From: Pirellulaceae bacterium | Lineage (GTDB): Bacteria; Planctomycetota; Planctomycetia; Pirellulales; Pirellulaceae | DNA length: 25,415 bases | Direction: 5' to 3' | Assembly (NCBI GenBank): GCA_035649415.1 | Contig: DASRJP010000151.1 | Coordinates: 1 to 25,415 of the forward strand | Shown: positions 1,201 through 25,415 of the stretch, one piece after another | Layout of the letters: the number at the start of each line of letters is the position of its first letter | Numbering within the stretch: the stretch's first letter is position 1 | Translations under genes and position numbers: made by a program | The notes under the pieces: generated by a model | The model's database searches: none | What the model was told of the DNA's origin: nothing | The model's input: the letters and a program-made list of their open reading frames with translations, nothing else

Positions 1201-1935
1201 GAGACGCGCAACGAAGCCCGTCCTACAGAACGACCACCGCGCCGAATGGTTGCAGTATCATCCGTCTCTGCTAACATACACCTGTCGGGGCCGGCAATGT
1301 CGCCCCCCCGCTTAACGAGTACAACTGGAATTCAAAGGTTGGTTGTGCCGGCGGATGTTTGCAGCCGGCAGCAGAAATGGCCTGATGCACGTTGACGACA
1401 CCGCTCGCTGCTCGCCCGCTCGCGGGCAAGCGGCAGGCGGAAGTGGTAGTCAGCTGGTTGGAACCCGGAGAATCGGATCGATGCACCTGATCCTGTGGAT
1501 CCTGCGGTTATTGTTTGGCCTGCACCTGGACGGTTCTGCCCGTCCGCTGCCAGTGGCGGTCCGCCCCGATGGCCGGACTGAATGCCATCACGGCGCGGAA
1601 TGGCTGTGGAACTGGCTGAGGGGGTGTGCCGACTGGCTGAGAATACGATTCTGGCGGCCGCGCCCCAGGGGCTGGGTCCAAAGGCCAGGGGGCGGACTGG
1701 TCCGCGGCACCGCACCCCCCGGTACCGATTGAACCGCGGGGGACGCGCTAGTCGTATTTCTTGCTGGCCACGATTGAGTCGATCCTTCAGGCTGCCGGGC
1801 TCAGCCCGCGACGGCCGTTCTGCTGTTTGCCCTGGTCGCTTGTCCGGATGGTTTGACGCCGGGCCGAGTGACAAATTATGGGCCGCTGCCGCTTCGCTGC
1901 CACGACTGCCGGACTGATCAAGGAACGCAGCCGTG

Positions 1936-3489
1936 ATGGTGCCGATCTGGCTTTTGGTGGTGTGTATGGTGGTCACCTTTGCGCTGACGGTAGGTGGCCT
2001 GAAGCTGCTGGACCGCTTGCGCAAGATCGACGCGGAGACGCAGGCCCGGGAGATTGTCCACAAAGCGGATCAGGAAGCGGCCGCCAAGTCCAAGGAAGCG
2101 GAGCTGGCCATCAAGGAGCGCGACCTCGCACAAAAGTCGGACGCCGAACGGCAGTTCAATGTCATCCGCGAGGAGCTGCGCGAGCGCGAACGGACACTCG
2201 ACAAGCGGCAGGAGACGCTCGAGCAGCAGGCCGACGACATTCGCAAGCAGGAGCGGATCGTGGAATCGACTCAGCGGCGGCTGGCCGACCGCCTCGAGGA
2301 CACCAACCGCCGCAACGAAGAGCTGGGAAAACTTCTCGACATGCAGCGGCAGACGCTCCACAGCCTGTCGGGGCTCTCGCCCGGCGAGGCGACCAAGCGG
2401 CTGCTCGATTCGCTCGAGCAGGAGCTTCAGCAGGAAATGGGCTCGATCGTCATGCGACACGAAAAGCGGATGGGCGAAGTCGTCGAACAGAAGTCGCGGG
2501 ACATGCTGCTTACGGCCCTCCAGCGGTATGCCGCCACGCACACGGCCGAGAGCACGACCAGCACGGTGGACATCCCCAACGACGAGATGAAAGGACGGAT
2601 CATCGGCCGCGAGGGACGCAATATCCGCACATTCGAGAAAGTCACCGGTGTGGATGTGATCATCGACGATACGCCGGGCGTGGTGATCGTCAGCGGTTTC
2701 GACCCAGTCCGACGCGAGGTCGCCCGCCAGACTCTCAACAAGCTGATTGCCGACGGCCGAATTCACCCCACGCGGATCGAGGAAATCTTCAATTCAACGC
2801 AGAAGGAAATCGAAGCCTTCATCCAGAAGAAAGGGGAGGAAGCGGCGCAGGAAGTGGACATCCACGGCATCAATCCGAAGGTGCTGTACATGCTGGGGCG
2901 GTTGCACTTCCGGACTAGCTACAGTCAAAACGTGCTGCGGCACAGCATCGAAGTGGCATTTCTGTCGGGGCTGATGGCGGAGATGGTGAGTTTGAATGGC
3001 GACATCGCGCGCCGCAGCGGCCTGCTGCATGACATCGGCAAGGCGGCCGATCACGAGCTGGAAGGGGGGCATCCCAAGATCGGCGCCGACATCCTCAAGC
3101 GGCATGGCGAGCGGCCGGAAATTGTCCACGCGGCGCTCGGCCACCACGACGAGATCATCACCGAGTATCCCTACACGATGCTCGTGGCGACCGCCGATGC
3201 GTGCAGCGCGTCGCGGCCGGGCGCCCGCCGCGAATCGCTAGAGCGATATATCAAGCGCATGGAGGAGCTGGAGACGATCGCCTGCGGCTTTCCTGGTGTG
3301 GAACAGGCGTTTGCGATCCAGGCGGGCCGCGAGCTGCGAGTGATCGCCAGCGCCAAGGACACCGACGACGCCAAGGCGGCCAAGATCTGCCGCGATATTG
3401 CCAAGGCTTTCGAGGAGCAGCTCACATATCCAGGCGAGATCAAGGTGACCGTCGTGCGCGAATCGCGGTTTACGGACGTGGCGAGGTGA
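1936..3489 (+). CDS. rny: ribonuclease Y
   Basis: N-terminal TM helix, long K/E/R/Q-rich coiled coil, KH domain ([26 protein letters not shown]), HD domain (LLHDIGKA ... GHHDE): the canonical RNase Y architecture. GTG at 1933 is followed by ATG at 1936, with an AAGGAA Shine-Dalgarno upstream. Stop TGA at 3487-3489. Confidence 0.9.
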
Positions 3490-3492
3490 CAA

Positions 3493-3553
3493 GTAGCAGG
3501 CACACTCCGAGTGCCGTCCGGCAAGCTAACGGCACACGGAGTGTGCCTACTAC
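3493..3553. repeat. inverted pair of a 24-nt hairpin repeat (REP/BIME-like), copy A
   Basis: Left arm 3493-3516 is GTAGCAGGCACACTCCGAGTGCCG, the reverse-complement form with 2 mismatches. A 13-nt spacer follows. Right arm 3530-3553 is CGGCACACGGAGTGTGCCTACTAC. Each arm can fold as a GGCACAC-NNN-GTGTGCC hairpin. The same 24-mer recurs at 23422-23445, 23569-23592 and 24486-24509. Confidence 0.6.
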
Positions 3554-14527: not shown

Positions 14528-15670
14528 TCAAATCGCTCCCGGCGAGCGGTCATTCGATACCGCTCGCCACCGCGCCAGCTTTTGTTCGCAAAAGGCCGCG
14601 AACCGATCCTCGGTAATCGCCTGCCGCGACTGGGCCATCAGCCGCTGGTAGTAGGTCAGGTTGTGTGCGGTCAGCAGGATCGGCCCGAGCATTTCGTCAG
14701 CCAGAAACAAGTGCCGCAGGTAGCCCCGGCTGTGTCGGCAAGCCGGGCAGCAGCAGCCTTCTTCCAGCGGGCGATCGTCAAGTTGGTGGACCGCATTACG
14801 CAGCCGCAGCGGACCGTCGTCTGTGAACGCCATGGCGTTGCGTCCATTGCGCGTCGGCAGGACACAGTCGAACAGATCCACGCCTCGGCGAATCGCCTCC
14901 AGCAGGTCTTGCGGCCGGCCCACGCCCATCAGGTATCGCGGTTTGTCGGCCGGAAGGACCGGAGCAACGGCATCCAGGATCCGGTACATCTCCTCGGGGG
15001 TCTCACCCACGCTCAAACCGCCGATCGCATAACCGCCGAAATCGAGCGCCATGAGCGCTTGGGCGCACTCGATTCGCAGCTCGGCATTCAGTCCCCCCTG
15101 GACGATGGCAAACTGGGCCTGGTCGCTGCGCTTTGCGGCCTGTCGGCAGCGCTGCGCCCAGCGGATCGACCGCTGGCAAGCGTCCAGGATGGTCGCTTCG
15201 TCGCTGGGAAGAGCGACGACATGATCCAGGACCATGGCCACGTCGCTGCCCAAGTCTTCCTGAATGGCGACCGCGCGCTGGGGGCTGAGCTCCATCAGGC
15301 GGCCGTCGATGTGAGAGCGAAAGATGGCCCCTTCCTCGCGGACTTTCGTCATTTGCGCCAGGCTGAAGAGCTGAAAGCCGCCGCTGTCCGTCAGGATTGG
15401 CCCGTCCCACCCCATAAAGCGGTGCAGACCGCCAAAATGCTTGATCGTCTCAGGGCCTGGCCGCAGCGCCAAATGGTAGGTGTTGCCCAGAATCATCTGC
15501 GCGCCGGTGTCCCGCACCTGTTCGATGGTCAATCCTTTGATCGTCGCCTGCGTGCCGACGGGCATGAATGCCGGCGTCTGAACGAGACCGTGCGGCGTGT
15601 GGTAAATGCACTGCCGGGCTGGACAACCAGCGTCCACATGAACGAGGCGAAAGGAAAACGCAGCAGGCAT
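14528..15670 (-). CDS. tgt: queuine tRNA-ribosyltransferase
   Basis: 380 aa. The N-terminus aligns with E. coli Tgt ([18 protein letters not shown]). Catalytic Asp region (ILTDSGGFQ). Zn site ([16 protein letters not shown]). The start ATG lies only 4 nt downstream of a strong palindrome and there is no obvious Shine-Dalgarno. Confidence 0.95.
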
Positions 15671-15674
15671 CGTA

Positions 15675-15721
15675 GAACGGAATTAGTTCCGTTCCTTTGG
15701 CGAACGGAATGAATTCCGTTC
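15675..15721. promoter_or_regulatory. two tandem GAAC-N12-GTTC palindromes (candidate operator or RNA hairpins) abutting the tgt start
   Basis: Palindrome 1 at 15675-15694: GAACGGAA-TTAG-TTCCGTTC. Palindrome 2 at 15702-15721: GAACGGAAT-GA-ATTCCGTTC. Their centres are 27 bp apart. They lie between the stop region of the TPR-alphaCTD gene and the ATG of tgt on the minus strand, and the tgt ATG follows 4 nt after the second palindrome. Confidence 0.4.
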
Positions 15722-15733
15722 CACACTTGAGCG

Positions 15734-21622: not shown

Positions 21623-22216
21623 GTGACTGCCGTACTCCAGCGTCCGACGCTCGTGCTCAACCGTAGCTGGCAGCCGGTGCGTGTCAGCACGGTTTCTCGC
21701 GCGCTGATCCTCGTCTGGAACGGCGTGGCCCGCGTCGTCGATCCGCACGACTTTCAGCAGTACGACTGGGACGACTGGTCGCGGATGAAGCCCCCGGAGG
21801 GCGAGCCGTTCATCCGCGCGGTGCGGCAGCACTTCCGCGTGCCGGAGGTGGTGACGCTAACGCACTACGACAAGCTGCCGGTGACGCACGTGGCCTTCAG
21901 CCGCCGCAACCTATTCAAGCGCGACGGCTACAAGTGCCAGTACTGCGGCGCTCACCCCCGGCCGGACGAGCTGACGATCGACCACATCGTTCCGCGCTCG
22001 CGCGGCGGCGAGAGCACGTGGGAAAACTGCGTGTTGGCCTGCATGGAGTGCAACAAGCGCAAGGCGAACCTCACGCCTGATGAGGCCAGCCTGCGGCTCC
22101 GCACCAGGCCGGTCCGCCCGCGCTGGAAGCCGCTGTACGCCTCGAGCCAGATGCCGATCGCCAGTTGGTCGAAGTTCATCAGCGAGGCGTACTGGACGGT
22201 TGAGCTGGAGCGATAG
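21623..22216 (+). CDS. HNH endonuclease
   Basis: 197 aa. HNH/zinc-finger nuclease motif: CQYCG ... ELTIDHIVPRSRGGESTWENCVLACMECNKRKAN. GTG start with an AGGAG Shine-Dalgarno 7 nt upstream. Stand-alone small HNH family (COG1403-like). Confidence 0.85.
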   Translation: MTAVLQRPTLVLNRSWQPVRVSTVSRALILVWNGVARVVDPHDFQQYDWDDWSRMKPPEGEPFIRAVRQHFRVPEVVTLTHYDKLPVTHVAFSRRNLFKRDGYKCQYCGAHPRPDELTIDHIVPRSRGGESTWENCVLACMECNKRKANLTPDEASLRLRTRPVRPRWKPLYASSQMPIASWSKFISEAYWTVELER

Positions 22217-22228
22217 GACGACGAAAAA

Positions 22229-22268
22229 GGCGCGGCGACGGCAAATGCCGTCGCCGCGCCCCATTTTG
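22229..22268. terminator. bidirectional rho-independent terminator between the convergent HNH and SPFH genes
   Basis: Near-perfect 13-15 bp GC stem (GGCGCGGCGACGGCA / TGCCGTCGCCGCGCC) is flanked by GAAAAA on the left and CCATTTTGA on the right. Read on the minus strand the hairpin is followed by TTTTTCG. Confidence 0.6.
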
Positions 22269-22304
22269 ATGCCGTGGTAAGGCAGGCGAGACGCTTGCCC
22301 CACG

Positions 22305-23405
22305 TTACAGCAGGTTGACGATCTTCTCGGCCAGACCCTTCTCACCGAGCACGACGCTCAGCTTGCCGCCGGAAGCGATCTTCTCGAGCACCTCCAGCTC
22401 CTTGAGCCGCATCAGCGTCGGGTTCTCCGCCAGCAGGCGAGCCGTGTTCGCCTGGCTGCGGGCCGCGGCAGTCTCCTCGCGGCGGGTGATCAAGTTGGCC
22501 TCGGCCGCCTTCTTGGCCTCGGTCACCTTGTTCAGCAGGTCCTTCATTTCCCCCGGCAGCATCACGTCCCGGATGCCGACGGAGAGGATTTCCAGACCCA
22601 GCCCGGTCGCGCGGCGACGCACGAGCTGCTCCAGCTCCGCCGCCACGGCATCCTTGCCAGTCAGCAGGGCGTCGAGCTCGCGAGTGCCGACGACCGCCCG
22701 CAGCACGAGCTGCACCTCGCGGTACAGGGCGGTGCGAACGTCCTCGCTGACGCTCACCGCCAGCCGCGGGTCGCTCACGCGGAAGGTCACGACCGCGGTC
22801 AGACGCAGGGTCACCTTGTCGGCAGTCATGATCTCCTGGCCGCCGACGTCGAGCATGGTCTCGCGGAGGTCCACCGGCACCAGCTTCACGCGGGCGACGT
22901 TCTTCCAGAACGCGTACTGCCCCGGCGGCAGAGTCTCGACGAAGTTGCCGTCGATGAGCAGGACGCCGGCGTGACCGGCCTCGACCGCCTGCACGTCGAG
23001 CAGCTTGTCCACGAGCGGCTGGCGGGCGATCGCCGGCAGCTCCTTGTGGGCAAAGCGGACGGTCCGCGCATCGACGAGCTCGACCTCGACCTTGCGGTGC
23101 GTGGTCCAGTAGGCGAACAGCCCCGGCCCCAGCACGTGGCTGAACCGGCCGTCCACCCAGACGAGCGCCCGCTCGTGGTCCTTGAGGTCCAGTACGGTTG
23201 CACGACCAGTCAGCACGCCGCTCTTGGCGATCATGTCGAGCTGCTCGTGGACCAACCACGGCGCGCGGAGCTGGGCGCGCTCAATCTTGAGTTTGCCCCA
23301 CGGATCGAACATCCAGTGGCGGCCCGCGCCGAGCAGTCGCTCGAAGACGCCGTCGCGAAAGACGATGCCGGCCTCGATGGGGCGGATCTTGATGGTCTTG
23401 AACAT
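22305..23405 (-). CDS. SPFH/band-7 (stomatin/prohibitin-like) domain protein
   Basis: The C-terminal roughly 190 aa form a typical SPFH domain plus coiled coil (LRLTAVVTFRVSDP ... ILSVGIRDVMLPGEMKDLLNKVTEAKKAAEANLITRREETAAARSQ). The N-terminal roughly 180 aa have no TM and contain three repeats of the SPFH N-terminal beta-motif. ATG 23405 (MFKTIKI) has a strong AAGGAGG Shine-Dalgarno 8 nt upstream. The ORF-track start (23432) lies inside the repeat element. Confidence 0.85.
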   Translation of the reverse strand: MFKTIKIRPIEAGIVFRDGVFERLLGAGRHWMFDPWGKLKIERAQLRAPWLVHEQLDMIAKSGVLTGRATVLDLKDHERALVWVDGRFSHVLGPGLFAYWTTHRKVEVELVDARTVRFAHKELPAIARQPLVDKLLDVQAVEAGHAGVLLIDGNFVETLPPGQYAFWKNVARVKLVPVDLRETMLDVGGQEIMTADKVTLRLTAVVTFRVSDPRLAVSVSEDVRTALYREVQLVLRAVVGTRELDALLTGKDAVAAELEQLVRRRATGLGLEILSVGIRDVMLPGEMKDLLNKVTEAKKAAEANLITRREETAAARSQANTARLLAENPTLMRLKELEVLEKIASGGKLSVVLGEKGLAEKIVNLL

Positions 23406-23421
23406 GGGATTGACCTCCTTC

Positions 23422-23592
23422 GTAGTAGGCACACTCCGTGTGCCGTCTCGTGCCCAGGCTCTGCCTGGTCACGCACGTACCCGAGGCTCTGCCTCGGAGG
23501 CTTGCTGTGGTCCTTATCTTGTTACGGGTCGCCGAGGCGAAGACTCGTGGCGGGTTGTGTGTGCGGTACGGCACACGGAGTGTGCCTACTAC
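23422..23592. repeat. composite 171-bp element bounded by perfect 24-bp inverted copies of the hairpin repeat (MITE/BIME-like), copies B and C
   Basis: 23422-23445 is GTAGTAGGCACACTCCGTGTGCCG, the exact reverse complement of 23569-23592, CGGCACACGGAGTGTGCCTACTAC. The 123-bp core holds two hairpins with identical CTCTG loops (CCAGG-CTCTG-CCTGG at 23454-23468 and CCGAGG-CTCTG-CCTCGG at 23481-23497). Flanks: CCTTC immediately left, A+CCTTC on the right. Confidence 0.55.
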
Positions 23593-23907
23593 ACCTTCGG
23601 GCAGCGGAGCGAAGCCAATCCCACGAGCACATGCGGAGTGCGCTTGAGCGGCACTGGCCGCGGCTGCGTCCGCAAAGGCCGTACGAGCATCAGCCGGTCG
23701 TGAACGACCGGCTAAGCGGCTCGGCGTGCCCGTGCCTTGGCAGCCCGGCGAGTGCCGCGGCATCCGCGCACTACAGGGCAAGTGCTGGTGTTGCTGTCGA
23801 GGCCGGCGGGACTAAATCCCACCGCTCGCTCGGCAGCAGATCGAATCTTCGCCCGCTCCCCTCCGGTTTTTGGTGGACGCTCTCGCGTCGGTCGGGTTTT
23901 CAGCCCG

Positions 23908-23980
23908 GTGTGGTACAGGAGTCGAACCTGCAACAGCCAGATTAAAAATCTGGTGCTCTATCCAGTTGAGCTAACCACGC
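23908..23980 (-). tRNA. tRNA-Lys (anticodon TTT), with two stem imperfections
   Basis: 73-nt minus-strand cloverleaf. D-arm GCTC-AACTGGATA-GAGC. Anticodon arm CCAGA-TTTTTAA-TCTGG. T-arm GCAGG-TTCGACT-CCTGT. Acceptor GCGTGGT/ACCACAC. It has a C2-A71 mismatch and a G49-U65 wobble. No encoded CCA. Confidence 0.7.
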
Positions 23981-24106
23981 TCTCGATGACGCCGGCGGTA
24001 TAACCCCTGGTCGGAACGGGCCGCGCCAAACGCTCGCGCGTGGGCGGCGACGCCGCGGGACGGGGCGACATCGGCGTAATTTCCCGGCGAGACAATCGCC
24101 GGGAAG

Positions 24107-24178
24107 AGACGTTGGTAGGAGTCGAACCCACAAAAGACCGCTTTGCAGGCGGCCGCCTGGCCGCTTGGCGTCAACGTC
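24107..24178 (-). tRNA. tRNA-Cys (anticodon GCA)
   Basis: 72-nt minus-strand cloverleaf. Perfect acceptor GACGTTG/CAACGTC. Short 3-bp D-stem (GCC/GGC). Anticodon arm GCCGC-CTGCAAA-GCGGT. T-arm GTGGG-TTCGACT-CCTAC. Discriminator T. Confidence 0.8.
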
Positions 24179-24184
24179 GATCGT

Positions 24185-24219
24185 TCAGTCCACAGTCCGG
24201 AGTCCACAGTCCCCAGTCA
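24185..24219. repeat. five tandem heptamers with AGTCC core
   Basis: tcAGTCC acAGTCC ggAGTCC acAGTCC ccAGTCa, located directly upstream (5') of tRNA-Cys on the minus strand. Confidence 0.4.
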
Positions 24220-24225
24220 AATACG

Positions 24226-24259
24226 AAAAAGGCCCGCGATCGCTGCGACCGCGGGCCTG
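24226..24259 (-). terminator. rho-independent terminator (minus strand) downstream of the TolC-like gene
   Basis: 9-bp GC stem AGGCCCGCG / CGCGGGCCT with an 11-nt loop. It is preceded on the plus strand by AAAAA, which is a U-run after the hairpin on the minus-strand transcript. Confidence 0.55.
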
Positions 24260-24485
24260 ATGAAATTTAATTCTCGAGGCGGGTGGTCAGCAGCGTAGCG
24301 GCAGCGCGCCTGTGGGCTGATTGCCGCCGCAGACTAGCTGGCACAAGGATCGCTCGAATCGCAAAGTTCGGACGGTTTGTATCACGTGATTGGCCTCCTC
24401 GTATGAAGATAGGGGACGCGGTCCTGGCGGGGAGGTTCGCGCGAAATCCACAAGACGTGGCAGGCGAGACACCTGCCTCACGGGA

Positions 24486-24509
24486 CGGCGCACGGAGTGT
24501 GCCTACTAC
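24486..24509. repeat. solo copy D of the 24-nt hairpin repeat, abutting the stop codon of the TolC-like gene
   Basis: CGGCGCACGGAGTGTGCCTACTAC has one substitution (A to G) relative to the consensus, and the change keeps the hairpin as a G-U pair. The minus-strand TAA stop (24510-24512) is immediately adjacent. Confidence 0.5.
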
Positions 24510-25415
24510 TTATTCGCCGCCTACGGCCCGCTGGAGTTCCGCCTGGCGCTGGTGATAGGCGACCGCGGCTTCCTGTTCCTTTTCGCGCAGCTCGATGAGC
24601 TGCCGCTGCGCCATGGCCAGGTCGAGGAACGTCGCCTTGGCGTTTTCGTAGTTGGCCCGCGTCGCCTCGACATTGAGCTGTGCCGAGGGAATCAGCTTCT
24701 GCCGGTAGAGTTCCGACGACTGACGCGTCTCTTCCAGCCGCTCGTACGCCTGCTGGACTTCGTACTGAATGTCGAGTTGCTTCTGCTCGTATTCGGCGAC
24801 CCGCTGGCTGAGGCGGAACTCGGCTTCGCTCACCGCAGCGTGCCGTTTGCGGCGATAGAGCGGGATGTTGAGCCCCACCCCGACCTGCCCCCACATCTCC
24901 TTCTCCGGCATCATGGCGTTATACGCGCCGATCACGTCGACGTCGGGGTAGTACTGCTTGTAGGTCAACTCGAGCGACGCCTGTTCGGCCTCGATGCGGT
25001 GTGCTAGTGCCGCCAGGTCCTGCCGCTGCAAAAGCGCCTGACTCATCAGCAATGGCGTCTCATCGGCGGGATCCAACTCGGGGAGTGCCGCCGGCGCTGG
25101 CAGCGGCGCATCCGGTTGCCGTCGCAAGAGCGTATTGATCCGCGCGACGGCGACGCGCTCCATCCGCTTCAGTTCGAGCTGTCGCCGCGCCAAGTCGGCC
25201 AGTTCCACGTCAGCCTGCAGCACATCCTGCTGCGTGACCAAATTCGTTTGATACCGCACCTGGGCGGTCTCGCGGAGCTGCGTCAGAAGCTCGGTGCTCT
25301 CGCCATTGAGCCGTACCAACTGTCGCACCAGGTAATAGTCGTAAAACGCCATCTGCGTCATCAGCGCCAGTTGAACGCGGGCATCTTCCGCATCGTGGAA
25401 CGCGGCATCGGCCTC
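24510..25415 (-). CDS. outer-membrane efflux protein (TolC/OprM family), C-terminal part; the 5' end lies beyond the window
   Basis: OEP-type coiled-coil repeat (LELTYKQYYPDVDVIGAYNAMMPE ... QLNVEATRANYENAKATFLDLAMAQRQLIELREKEQEAAVAYHQRQAELQRA). The reading frame stays open upstream of Met 25361 to the window edge (EADAAFHDAEDARVQLAL precedes it). Confidence 0.75.
   Translation of the reverse strand, partial: EADAAFHDAEDARVQLALMTQMAFYDYYLVRQLVRLNGESTELLTQLRETAQVRYQTNLVTQQDVLQADVELADLARRQLELKRMERVAVARINTLLRRQPDAPLPAPAALPELDPADETPLLMSQALLQRQDLAALAHRIEAEQASLELTYKQYYPDVDVIGAYNAMMPEKEMWGQVGVGLNIPLYRRKRHAAVSEAEFRLSQRVAEYEQKQLDIQYEVQQAYERLEETRQSSELYRQKLIPSAQLNVEATRANYENAKATFLDLAMAQRQLIELREKEQEAAVAYHQRQAELQRAVGGE

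Follow-up and report, generated by a model that had tools for sequence, protein, structure and literature searches.

A pair of GTAG-type REPs around the leader of an SPFH gene in a Pirellulaceae bacterium

A stretch of 171 bp with perfect inverted ends lies immediately upstream of an SPFH gene in a contig of a Pirellulaceae bacterium (GCA_035649415.1, DASRJP010000151.1, positions 1 to 25,415; this whole stretch is referred to here as the window). Is it one mobile element, or several sequences that came together at one place? The original prediction had taken it for a MITE-like unit whose flanking CCTTC pair could be a target-site duplication. We consider it highly probable that the 171 bp represent instead two independently acquired 25-nt repetitive extragenic palindromes (REPs) of the GTAG type, heads outward around the SPFH gene's own leader, in a mosaic cluster of palindromes; spread of the copies by a RAYT enzyme and effects on the RNA are what we infer beyond this.

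The inverted arms and the core between them

A repeat search delimited two inverted arms of 25 nt each, 100% complementary, with 121 nt between them (Table 1). The perfect 24-bp arms described earlier are therefore real and one base longer, and the 123-bp core corresponds to the interval left when arms of 24 nt are counted. The setting was likewise described correctly: the cluster lies between the SPFH gene and tRNA-Lys, and the inner arm adjoins the Shine-Dalgarno with a gap of 16 nt to the ATG, the start codon being the complement of 23403-23405. The left flank reads CCTCCTTC up to the GTAG of the proximal arm, and on the right the CTAC of the distal arm runs into ACCTTC, so that both flanking CCTTC copies are present. 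Two hairpins are found in the core as well; their stems measure 6-7 bp, and the loops are more aptly given as TCT than as CTCTG.

Table 1. Coordinates of repeats, genes and related features in the window and in other contigs
Feature	Source	Position	Strand	Remarks
SPFH/Band_7 (slipin-type) gene	window	22305-23405	-	product matches PF01145 Band_7; repeats sit in its leader
Shine-Dalgarno GAAGGAGG of SPFH gene	window	23414-23421	-	source of left CCTTC; directly adjoins arm
Proximal REP copy GTAGTAGGCACACTCCGTGTGCCGT	window	23422-23446	+	GTAG head abuts Shine-Dalgarno complement; shared with L125, not with L126 or L120
Two-hairpin module, second repeat family	window	23447-23497	+	CTCGTGCCCAGGCTCTGCCTGGTCACGC-N5-CCGAGGCTCTGCCTCGG; first 51 nt of core
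Core hairpin 1	window	~23454-23468		CCAGGC/GCCTGG stem, TCT loop
Core hairpin 2	window	23481-23497		CCGAGGC/GCCTCGG stem, TCT loop
Rest of core	window	23498-23567	+	leader spacer and degraded second inverted module (~23532-23550, CCGAGGCGAAGACTCGTGG); from L125/L126 alignment and blastn
Distal REP copy	window	23568-23592	-	exact reverse complement of proximal copy; head at 23592
tRNA-Lys	window	23907-23980	-	neighbour of repeat cluster
Second doublet of the same REP family	window	3493-3553	3493-3517 (+), 3529-3553 (-)	heads outward; 2 mismatches in (+) copy; 11-nt spacer
Single REP copy	window	24485-24509	-	1 mismatch; directly after TAA of ORF 24510-25361 (-), then hairpin of another family
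Third hairpin family, GTGGGGCAAGCGTCTCGCCTGCC, GTGAGGCAGGTGTCTCGCCTGCC	window	22281-22303; 24459-24481	-; -	GTGG or GTGA head; one just past SPFH stop, the other adjoining the single REP copy
Another GTAG/GTGG doublet, GTAGAACGGAATTAGTTCCGTT, GTGGAACGGAATTCATTCCGTT	window	15672-15693; 15703-15724	+; -	heads outward; between two minus-strand ORFs, 1 base from annotated ATG of ORF 14528-15670
Two-hairpin module copies	L126	2342-2392; 2428-2478; 3691-3742
Two-hairpin module copies	L170	1204-1253; 1296-1345
Two-hairpin module copy	L205	2130-2179
AT-rich palindromic leader	L261	2337-2500		~165 nt, between GAAGGT block and SPFH start
Tandem REP arrays	L010	569-780; 3513-3779
Tandem REP array	L085	6635-6925
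Tandem REP array	L026	3930-4072
Tandem REP array	L073	7253-7341
Long-spacer doublets, DATKSN01	L019	1506-1672; 3716-3882; 6143-6307
Long-spacer doublet, DATKSN01	L067	2737-2903
'REPtron' layout	L251	1580-2860		at least 5 tandem REPs upstream and 4 inverted downstream of RAYT-like gene
Non-coding block	window	23593-23906	-
Non-coding block	L125	1933-2306
Non-coding block	L126	2068-2328
Non-coding block	L261	2031-2336
Non-coding block	L124	2562-2933

Sites matching the 24-mer with up to 3 mismatches occur five times in the window (3493+, 3530-, 23422+, 23569- and 24486-), while none of 100 dinucleotide shuffles contained any. These five copies occupy three intergenic sites in 25 kb, the extragenic location having been checked in the window. 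The published search rule for REPs (PMC6006769) asks for GTAG or GTGG, then 0-2 nt, then a stem of 7-20 bp that closes a loop of 2-5 nt. Each arm begins with GTAG, continues with TA and then a 7-bp stem (GGCACAC/GTGTGCC) around a TCC loop, and ends in a GT tail; AAA may precede the head. Over 469 copies, positions 1-4 are G, T, A and G in at least 99%, a figure to which the search pattern itself contributes. The 25-nt arm folds as single-stranded DNA into a hairpin of -7.4 kcal/mol (z = -3.9). Compensated changes, in which both sides of the stem are altered and pairing is kept, account for 43 cells, with the variants GGCACGC..GCGTGCC (15 times) and GGCATAC..GTATGCC (4 times); pairing of the hairpin is under constraint. 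Each arm is a copy of a GTAG-type REP.

The core has a different origin. Its first 51 nt belong to a second repeat family, a two-hairpin module that recurs elsewhere as CTCGTGCCCAGGCTCTGCCTGGGCACGC-N5-CCGAGGCTCTGCCTCGG over about 50 nt, and in relatives its first hairpin is the tip of an 11-bp stem. The SPFH leaders of relatives L125 and L126 each contain two inverted copies of the module, and L126 has another on the downstream side of the gene. Two contigs unrelated to the locus also carry it, L170 as an inverted pair and L205 in a single copy; the stems show compensatory changes between copies. When the core was searched by blastn, it matched only orthologous leaders and copies of this separate module, and in a relative (L126) it occurs without arms. 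The core is the resident SPFH leader and not cargo. Overall, the locus is a BIME-like mosaic cluster of palindromic repeats in the order REP(+), two-hairpin module, spacer, module remnant, REP(-). A second mosaic spot, at 24459-24509, places a REP beside a GTGG-type hairpin.

On the sense strand of the RNA, the two arms pair as a perfect 25-bp stem that ends at the Shine-Dalgarno (MFE -100.7 kcal/mol, z = -7.4). In a transcript, such a stem 5' of the Shine-Dalgarno might, as the modelled fold suggests, affect translation, the stability of the mRNA or its processing, RNase III being one candidate enzyme. A scan of 22200-24600 identified no sigma-70-like promoter.

Arm states among close relatives

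Relatives were drawn from the 90%-identity protein cluster of the SPFH protein, and their upstream regions were aligned; at the DNA level their SPFH genes are 89-94% identical to that of the window and to each other. The SPFH protein also occurs on three contigs of the same strain from different samples (L117-L119), but their upstream regions are identical to the window and hence uninformative. No REP was present in two orthologue loci of 71-73% identity (L121 and L124), which are too diverged for site-level comparison.

The remaining relatives differ in their arms. The window carries both, around a core whose distal module is truncated. In L125 (GCA_973355535.1) the proximal arm is present and the distal arm absent, and the core has an intact extra hairpin pair at the distal site. 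L126 has the core and neither arm. L120 has the core and no proximal arm, its contig beginning 61 nt upstream of the ATG, short of the distal site. L261 also lacks both arms; it is conserved up to GAAGGTTTA, after which an unrelated AT-rich palindromic leader follows, although its gene is 92% identical. The distal arm is thus absent from L125, L126 and L261, and the GAAGGT block that flanks it is kept in all three. GGAGG is retained upstream of the SPFH gene in every relative, whether a REP is there or not.

Because single-arm and no-arm alleles occur in relatives, the two arms are separate events and were acquired independently. The distal arm of the window is a derived insertion, accompanied by a deletion of about 30 nt, since it lies beside a truncated leader module that is intact in L125. 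The same intact module rules out, as far as the distal arm is concerned, that deletions in an ancestor carrying both arms gave rise to all the relatives. A single event does not reconcile the pattern of the proximal arm, present in the window and L125 and absent from L126 and L120, with the gene identities, and an explanation has to call on loss, parallel gain or recombination. Gains of arms at this leader would be single-copy events, one REP each. As had been foreseen, gain or loss of an arm alters the SPFH leader, and REP copies are gained or lost singly, only a few bases away from a ribosome-binding site. Across the relatives, at least three kinds of palindromic element have inserted between GAAGGT and the ribosome-binding site, which makes this interval a hot spot.

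These alleles also bear on the reading as a 171-bp MITE, a non-autonomous transposon in which 24-bp terminal inverted repeats enclose 123 bp of cargo and which inserted whole, duplicating CCTTC. Such an element would explain both the perfect inverted arms and the CCTTC on each side at an offset of one base, and four doublets of the Pirellulales MAG DATKSN01 with 119-121-nt spacers indicate that some long-spacer doublets can act as units. However, the core shows no similarity to the spacer conserved in those doublets, the arms separate in relatives and the core is found there without them. Other copies of the arms with this core, which the original prediction had proposed to look for, are absent from about 1.5 Mb of repeat-bearing DNA, the same strain apart. 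Empty sites, also proposed as a check, exist in relatives for single arms but not for the whole 171-bp unit.

The supposed target-site duplication fares no better, both CCTTC copies being pre-existing sequence. The right copy is part of GCCCGAAGGT in the conserved GAAGGT block, a sequence that relatives lacking the distal arm have as well, L125 with a single substitution. The left copy is supplied by the Shine-Dalgarno, read as its complement; in L125, TTTGGAGGG takes its place next to the same proximal arm. Flanking direct repeats at 143 heads-out doublets of the family, compared with shuffled pairings, were at chance level (3 against 1.8 expected for k = 4, and 1 against 0.5 for k = 5). Nor is cargo conserved, since spacers are 5-183 nt long, with no relation in sequence from one locus to the next, and no insertion sequence bearing such ends came to notice in the loci examined, which were inspected unsystematically for this. 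We give the MITE reading almost no credence, and reject it at this locus because L125 combines one arm with an intact leader. What stands of the original prediction is that the arms are a dispersed repeat of mobile type with arm-less alleles; the 171 bp are not one element. For annotation, this means that two unrelated insertions of tiny repeats, and no transposon, can lie behind a perfect inverted repeat that encloses a structured core, a matter that close relatives settle quickly.

Hosts, arrangement and spread of the repeat

The exact 23-mer of the REP was scanned against 185,579 species-representative genomes and was found in at least 116 stretches from at least about 75 species-level assemblies. 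Going by record titles, the matches listed comprise about 74 stretches with a Planctomycetota label and 31 with that of Candidatus Poribacteria, single-contig chromosomes among the latter. The planctomycete carriers among the matches listed are Gemmataceae, Pirellulales, Thermoguttaceae, Planctomycetaceae and one Kuenenia. Exact copies among the matches listed were also seen in MAGs labelled Alcaligenaceae (L017, L050, L056, L063, L094 and L100) and in a Verrucomicrobiales MAG (L005 and L049); these labels may reflect mis-binning. At least 120 metagenome contigs contain the exact 23-mer. In IMG/VR, nine stretches carry the REP, seven of them (L262-L266, L269 and L270) from one 44-kb contig, IMGVR_UViG_3300031576_000108, which has 20 copies in 38.5 kb; L165 was noted alongside. 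This REP-dense contig gave no RAYT match, one unrelated low-GC RAYT being found in IMG/VR, and although filed as viral it may be misfiled host DNA. The density is 5 copies in about 33 kb for the window and its extension, and roughly one copy per 3-7 kb overall.

Arrangement was analyzed for 474 copies at 236 loci, with up to 3 mismatches allowed. There were 144 heads-out pairs, 5 heads-in pairs and 54 tandem pairs. Spacers of heads-out pairs have a median of 26 nt and are mostly unrelated between loci, the commonest by 23-mer count being 13 nt. The three bases 5' of GTAG are A at frequencies of 0.72, 0.61 and 0.58. Tandem arrays of 3-6 copies with a fixed short spacer and a period of about 33-43 nt were observed in Poribacteria and Pirellulaceae (Table 1), some carrying the compensated stem variant GGCATAC..GTATGCC; repetition of REP and spacer together in these arrays points to slippage. 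In DATKSN01, heads-out doublets of the same REP with a conserved spacer occur at four sites, and doublet and spacer (about 167 nt) behave as a repeated unit there. Doublets with near-identical 13-nt spacers were found in JADLEL01 (L048, L072 and L110), and that of L071 is approximately their reverse complement.

Such doublets raise the question of whether the inverted pair at the SPFH gene is a strict REPIN, that is, a replicating unit that moved whole, with single copies as its decay products. The dominance of heads-out over heads-in pairs in the family is as this reading would predict, doublets within the JADLEL01 genome have spacers in common, and the doublet at 3493-3553 folds as one hairpin (-26.3 kcal/mol, z = -8.7). 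At the SPFH locus, however, the spacer is the ancestral leader, and its 121 nt are far from the lengths common in the family. The single arm of L125 is not a decayed form of the window's state, the distal module being intact there, and single-arm and no-arm alleles share the same spacer. The pair thus fails as a unit at this locus, although unit behaviour looks to be present in JADLEL01 and DATKSN01, and we regard the strict REPIN reading as quite improbable here.

A structure selected by the host, such as a terminator, an mRNA stabiliser or a binding site for an RNase or other protein, spread by recombination and slippage and needing no dedicated transposase, deserves consideration as well. 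Copies at 3493 and 24509 lie 0-3 nt past stop codons, the former doublet beginning 3 nt past the stop of ORF 1933-3489, and doublets are often flanked by AAA...TTT in the manner of bidirectional terminators. The tandem arrays with duplicated spacers are suggestive of slippage, the sequence is extremely conserved across phyla, and a cognate RAYT was not found in the approximately 1.5 Mb searched. Against this, presence and absence at the same site in relatives of 90-93% identity argue that the local function is not essential; the copies at the SPFH locus lack A/T runs; and a GTAG head next to a short hairpin is a hallmark of RAYT substrates (PMC3733652, PMC6006769). As the explanation of the locus, we judge host selection very unlikely, but it is compatible with the explanation by two REPs and does not exclude it.

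Under the two-REP explanation, the means of spread has to be considered. For GTAG REPs, a RAYT (HUH-Y1) enzyme makes the copies, working on single-stranded DNA. By analogy, a RAYT-type HUH/Y1 nuclease-transposase would spread the copies described here in the form of single-stranded DNA hairpins, leaving no target duplication. We searched about 1.5 Mb of REP-bearing DNA by tblastn with E. coli TnpA_REP (identical to PDB 4ER8) and 120 planctomycete RAYT homologues as queries. The sole credible match was a partial RAYT gene in L196, flanked by a different REP type. It led to 315 planctomycete homologues having the PEHxH, FW and YxxxNPV motifs in common with E. coli TnpA_REP. No RAYT bracketed by inverted GTAGTAGGCACAC REP copies was found in the approximately 1.5 Mb, a sample of some 500 copies in which, at about 1000 copies per genome, only 1-2 captures would be expected, so that the absence counts for little. 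Regular expressions for RAYT motifs gave no match, and peptides encoded by the REP were absent from planctomycete RAYT proteins. Two further candidates were discarded: a REP-bracketed ORF in L013 is a zinc-ribbon protein, and a weak match in L088 lies inside a large unrelated ORF.

At all six RAYT loci (L196, L247, L251, L252, L257 and L259), inverted arrays of REPs of other and longer types stand on both sides of the gene. The RAYT-like genes of planctomycetes encode about 160-170 aa with PEHxH, FWQ and YIHLNPV motifs, with long GTGG-headed REPs on either side, and the REP types of these 'REPtrons' differ between genomes. Judged from these motifs and their surroundings, predicted RAYT-REP systems do exist in Planctomycetota.

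Relation to known repeats and neighbouring elements

The REP shares with the GTAG REPs and BIMEs of Proteobacteria, among them the E. coli REP/BIME system (TnpA_REP/RayT, PDB 4ER8), a GTAG head beside a short G+C-rich hairpin, a high intergenic copy number, inverted pairs, mixed-motif clusters and a lack of target duplication (PMC3733652, PMC6006769). It differs from the proteobacterial GTAG REPs in having its own stem and loop sequence, in its hosts (Planctomycetota and Poribacteria) and in being identical across phyla rather than species-specific; moreover, a cognate RAYT was not found for the planctomycete and poribacterial REP in about 1.5 Mb. As in the REPINs of Pseudomonas fluorescens SBW25 (Bertels and Rainey 2011, PMC3116915), an inverted REP pair makes one long hairpin, doublets far exceed chance and some spacers are shared; unlike those, the arms at the SPFH locus are gained and lost singly and the spacer is the native leader. 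IS-derived bacterial MITEs are also short, non-coding and intergenic with inverted ends, but here there is no target-site duplication, no conserved cargo and no parent IS noticed, and the arms are independent.

The nearest described relatives are the GTAG families of the PVC group, Rhodopirellula baltica GTAG-20 and -21 and Opitutus terrae GTAG-17 to -20 (Di Nocera 2013, PMC3733652), which belong to the same superfamily and live in related hosts with several REP families per genome. The peptides listed there for intragenic REPs of R. baltica do not match translations of the 25-nt REP. Neither the REP nor its translations are present in the supplements of Di Nocera 2013 (PMC3733652) as far as these are available; identity with one of the families whose consensus sequences are given in its Figure 1 is possible. 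The REP sequence had no match in the literature or Rfam. The 25-nt family appears to be undescribed so far, GTAG-type REPs as such being already known.

According to the literature, REPs are for the most part specific to lineages and inherited vertically, and letter-perfect identity of one REP in Planctomycetota and Poribacteria is unusual. For a letter-identical 25-nt REP, at about one copy per 3-7 kb in at least two phyla, we offer a speculative and rather doubtful explanation: either the REP system moves between phyla, or a conserved host factor holds the hairpin constant for a cellular role. Movement between phyla, if true, would run contrary to the picture of REPIN-RAYT systems as lineage-bound and vertically inherited. 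A host-factor role, if true, would make single-copy gains by ribosome-binding sites a routine source of regulatory variation. The family lends itself well to testing whether REP systems pass on by vertical descent alone, and to tracing the enzyme that spreads this REP.

At least four hairpin families are present in the window. Two further sets of hairpins with GTAG, GTGG or GTGA heads were observed in addition to the REP and the two-hairpin module (Table 1). Over the whole window no Rfam family reached its gathering score, and 23380-23900 gave only chance-level matches at E <= 10. Between tRNA-Lys and the repeat cluster lies a non-coding block of 260-370 nt, which is conserved in all relatives and in part in a 71% orthologue locus. 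The five sequences available for it share a long-range closing stem and two near-invariant blocks, with five compensatory pairs; the block could be a small RNA or a structured leader.
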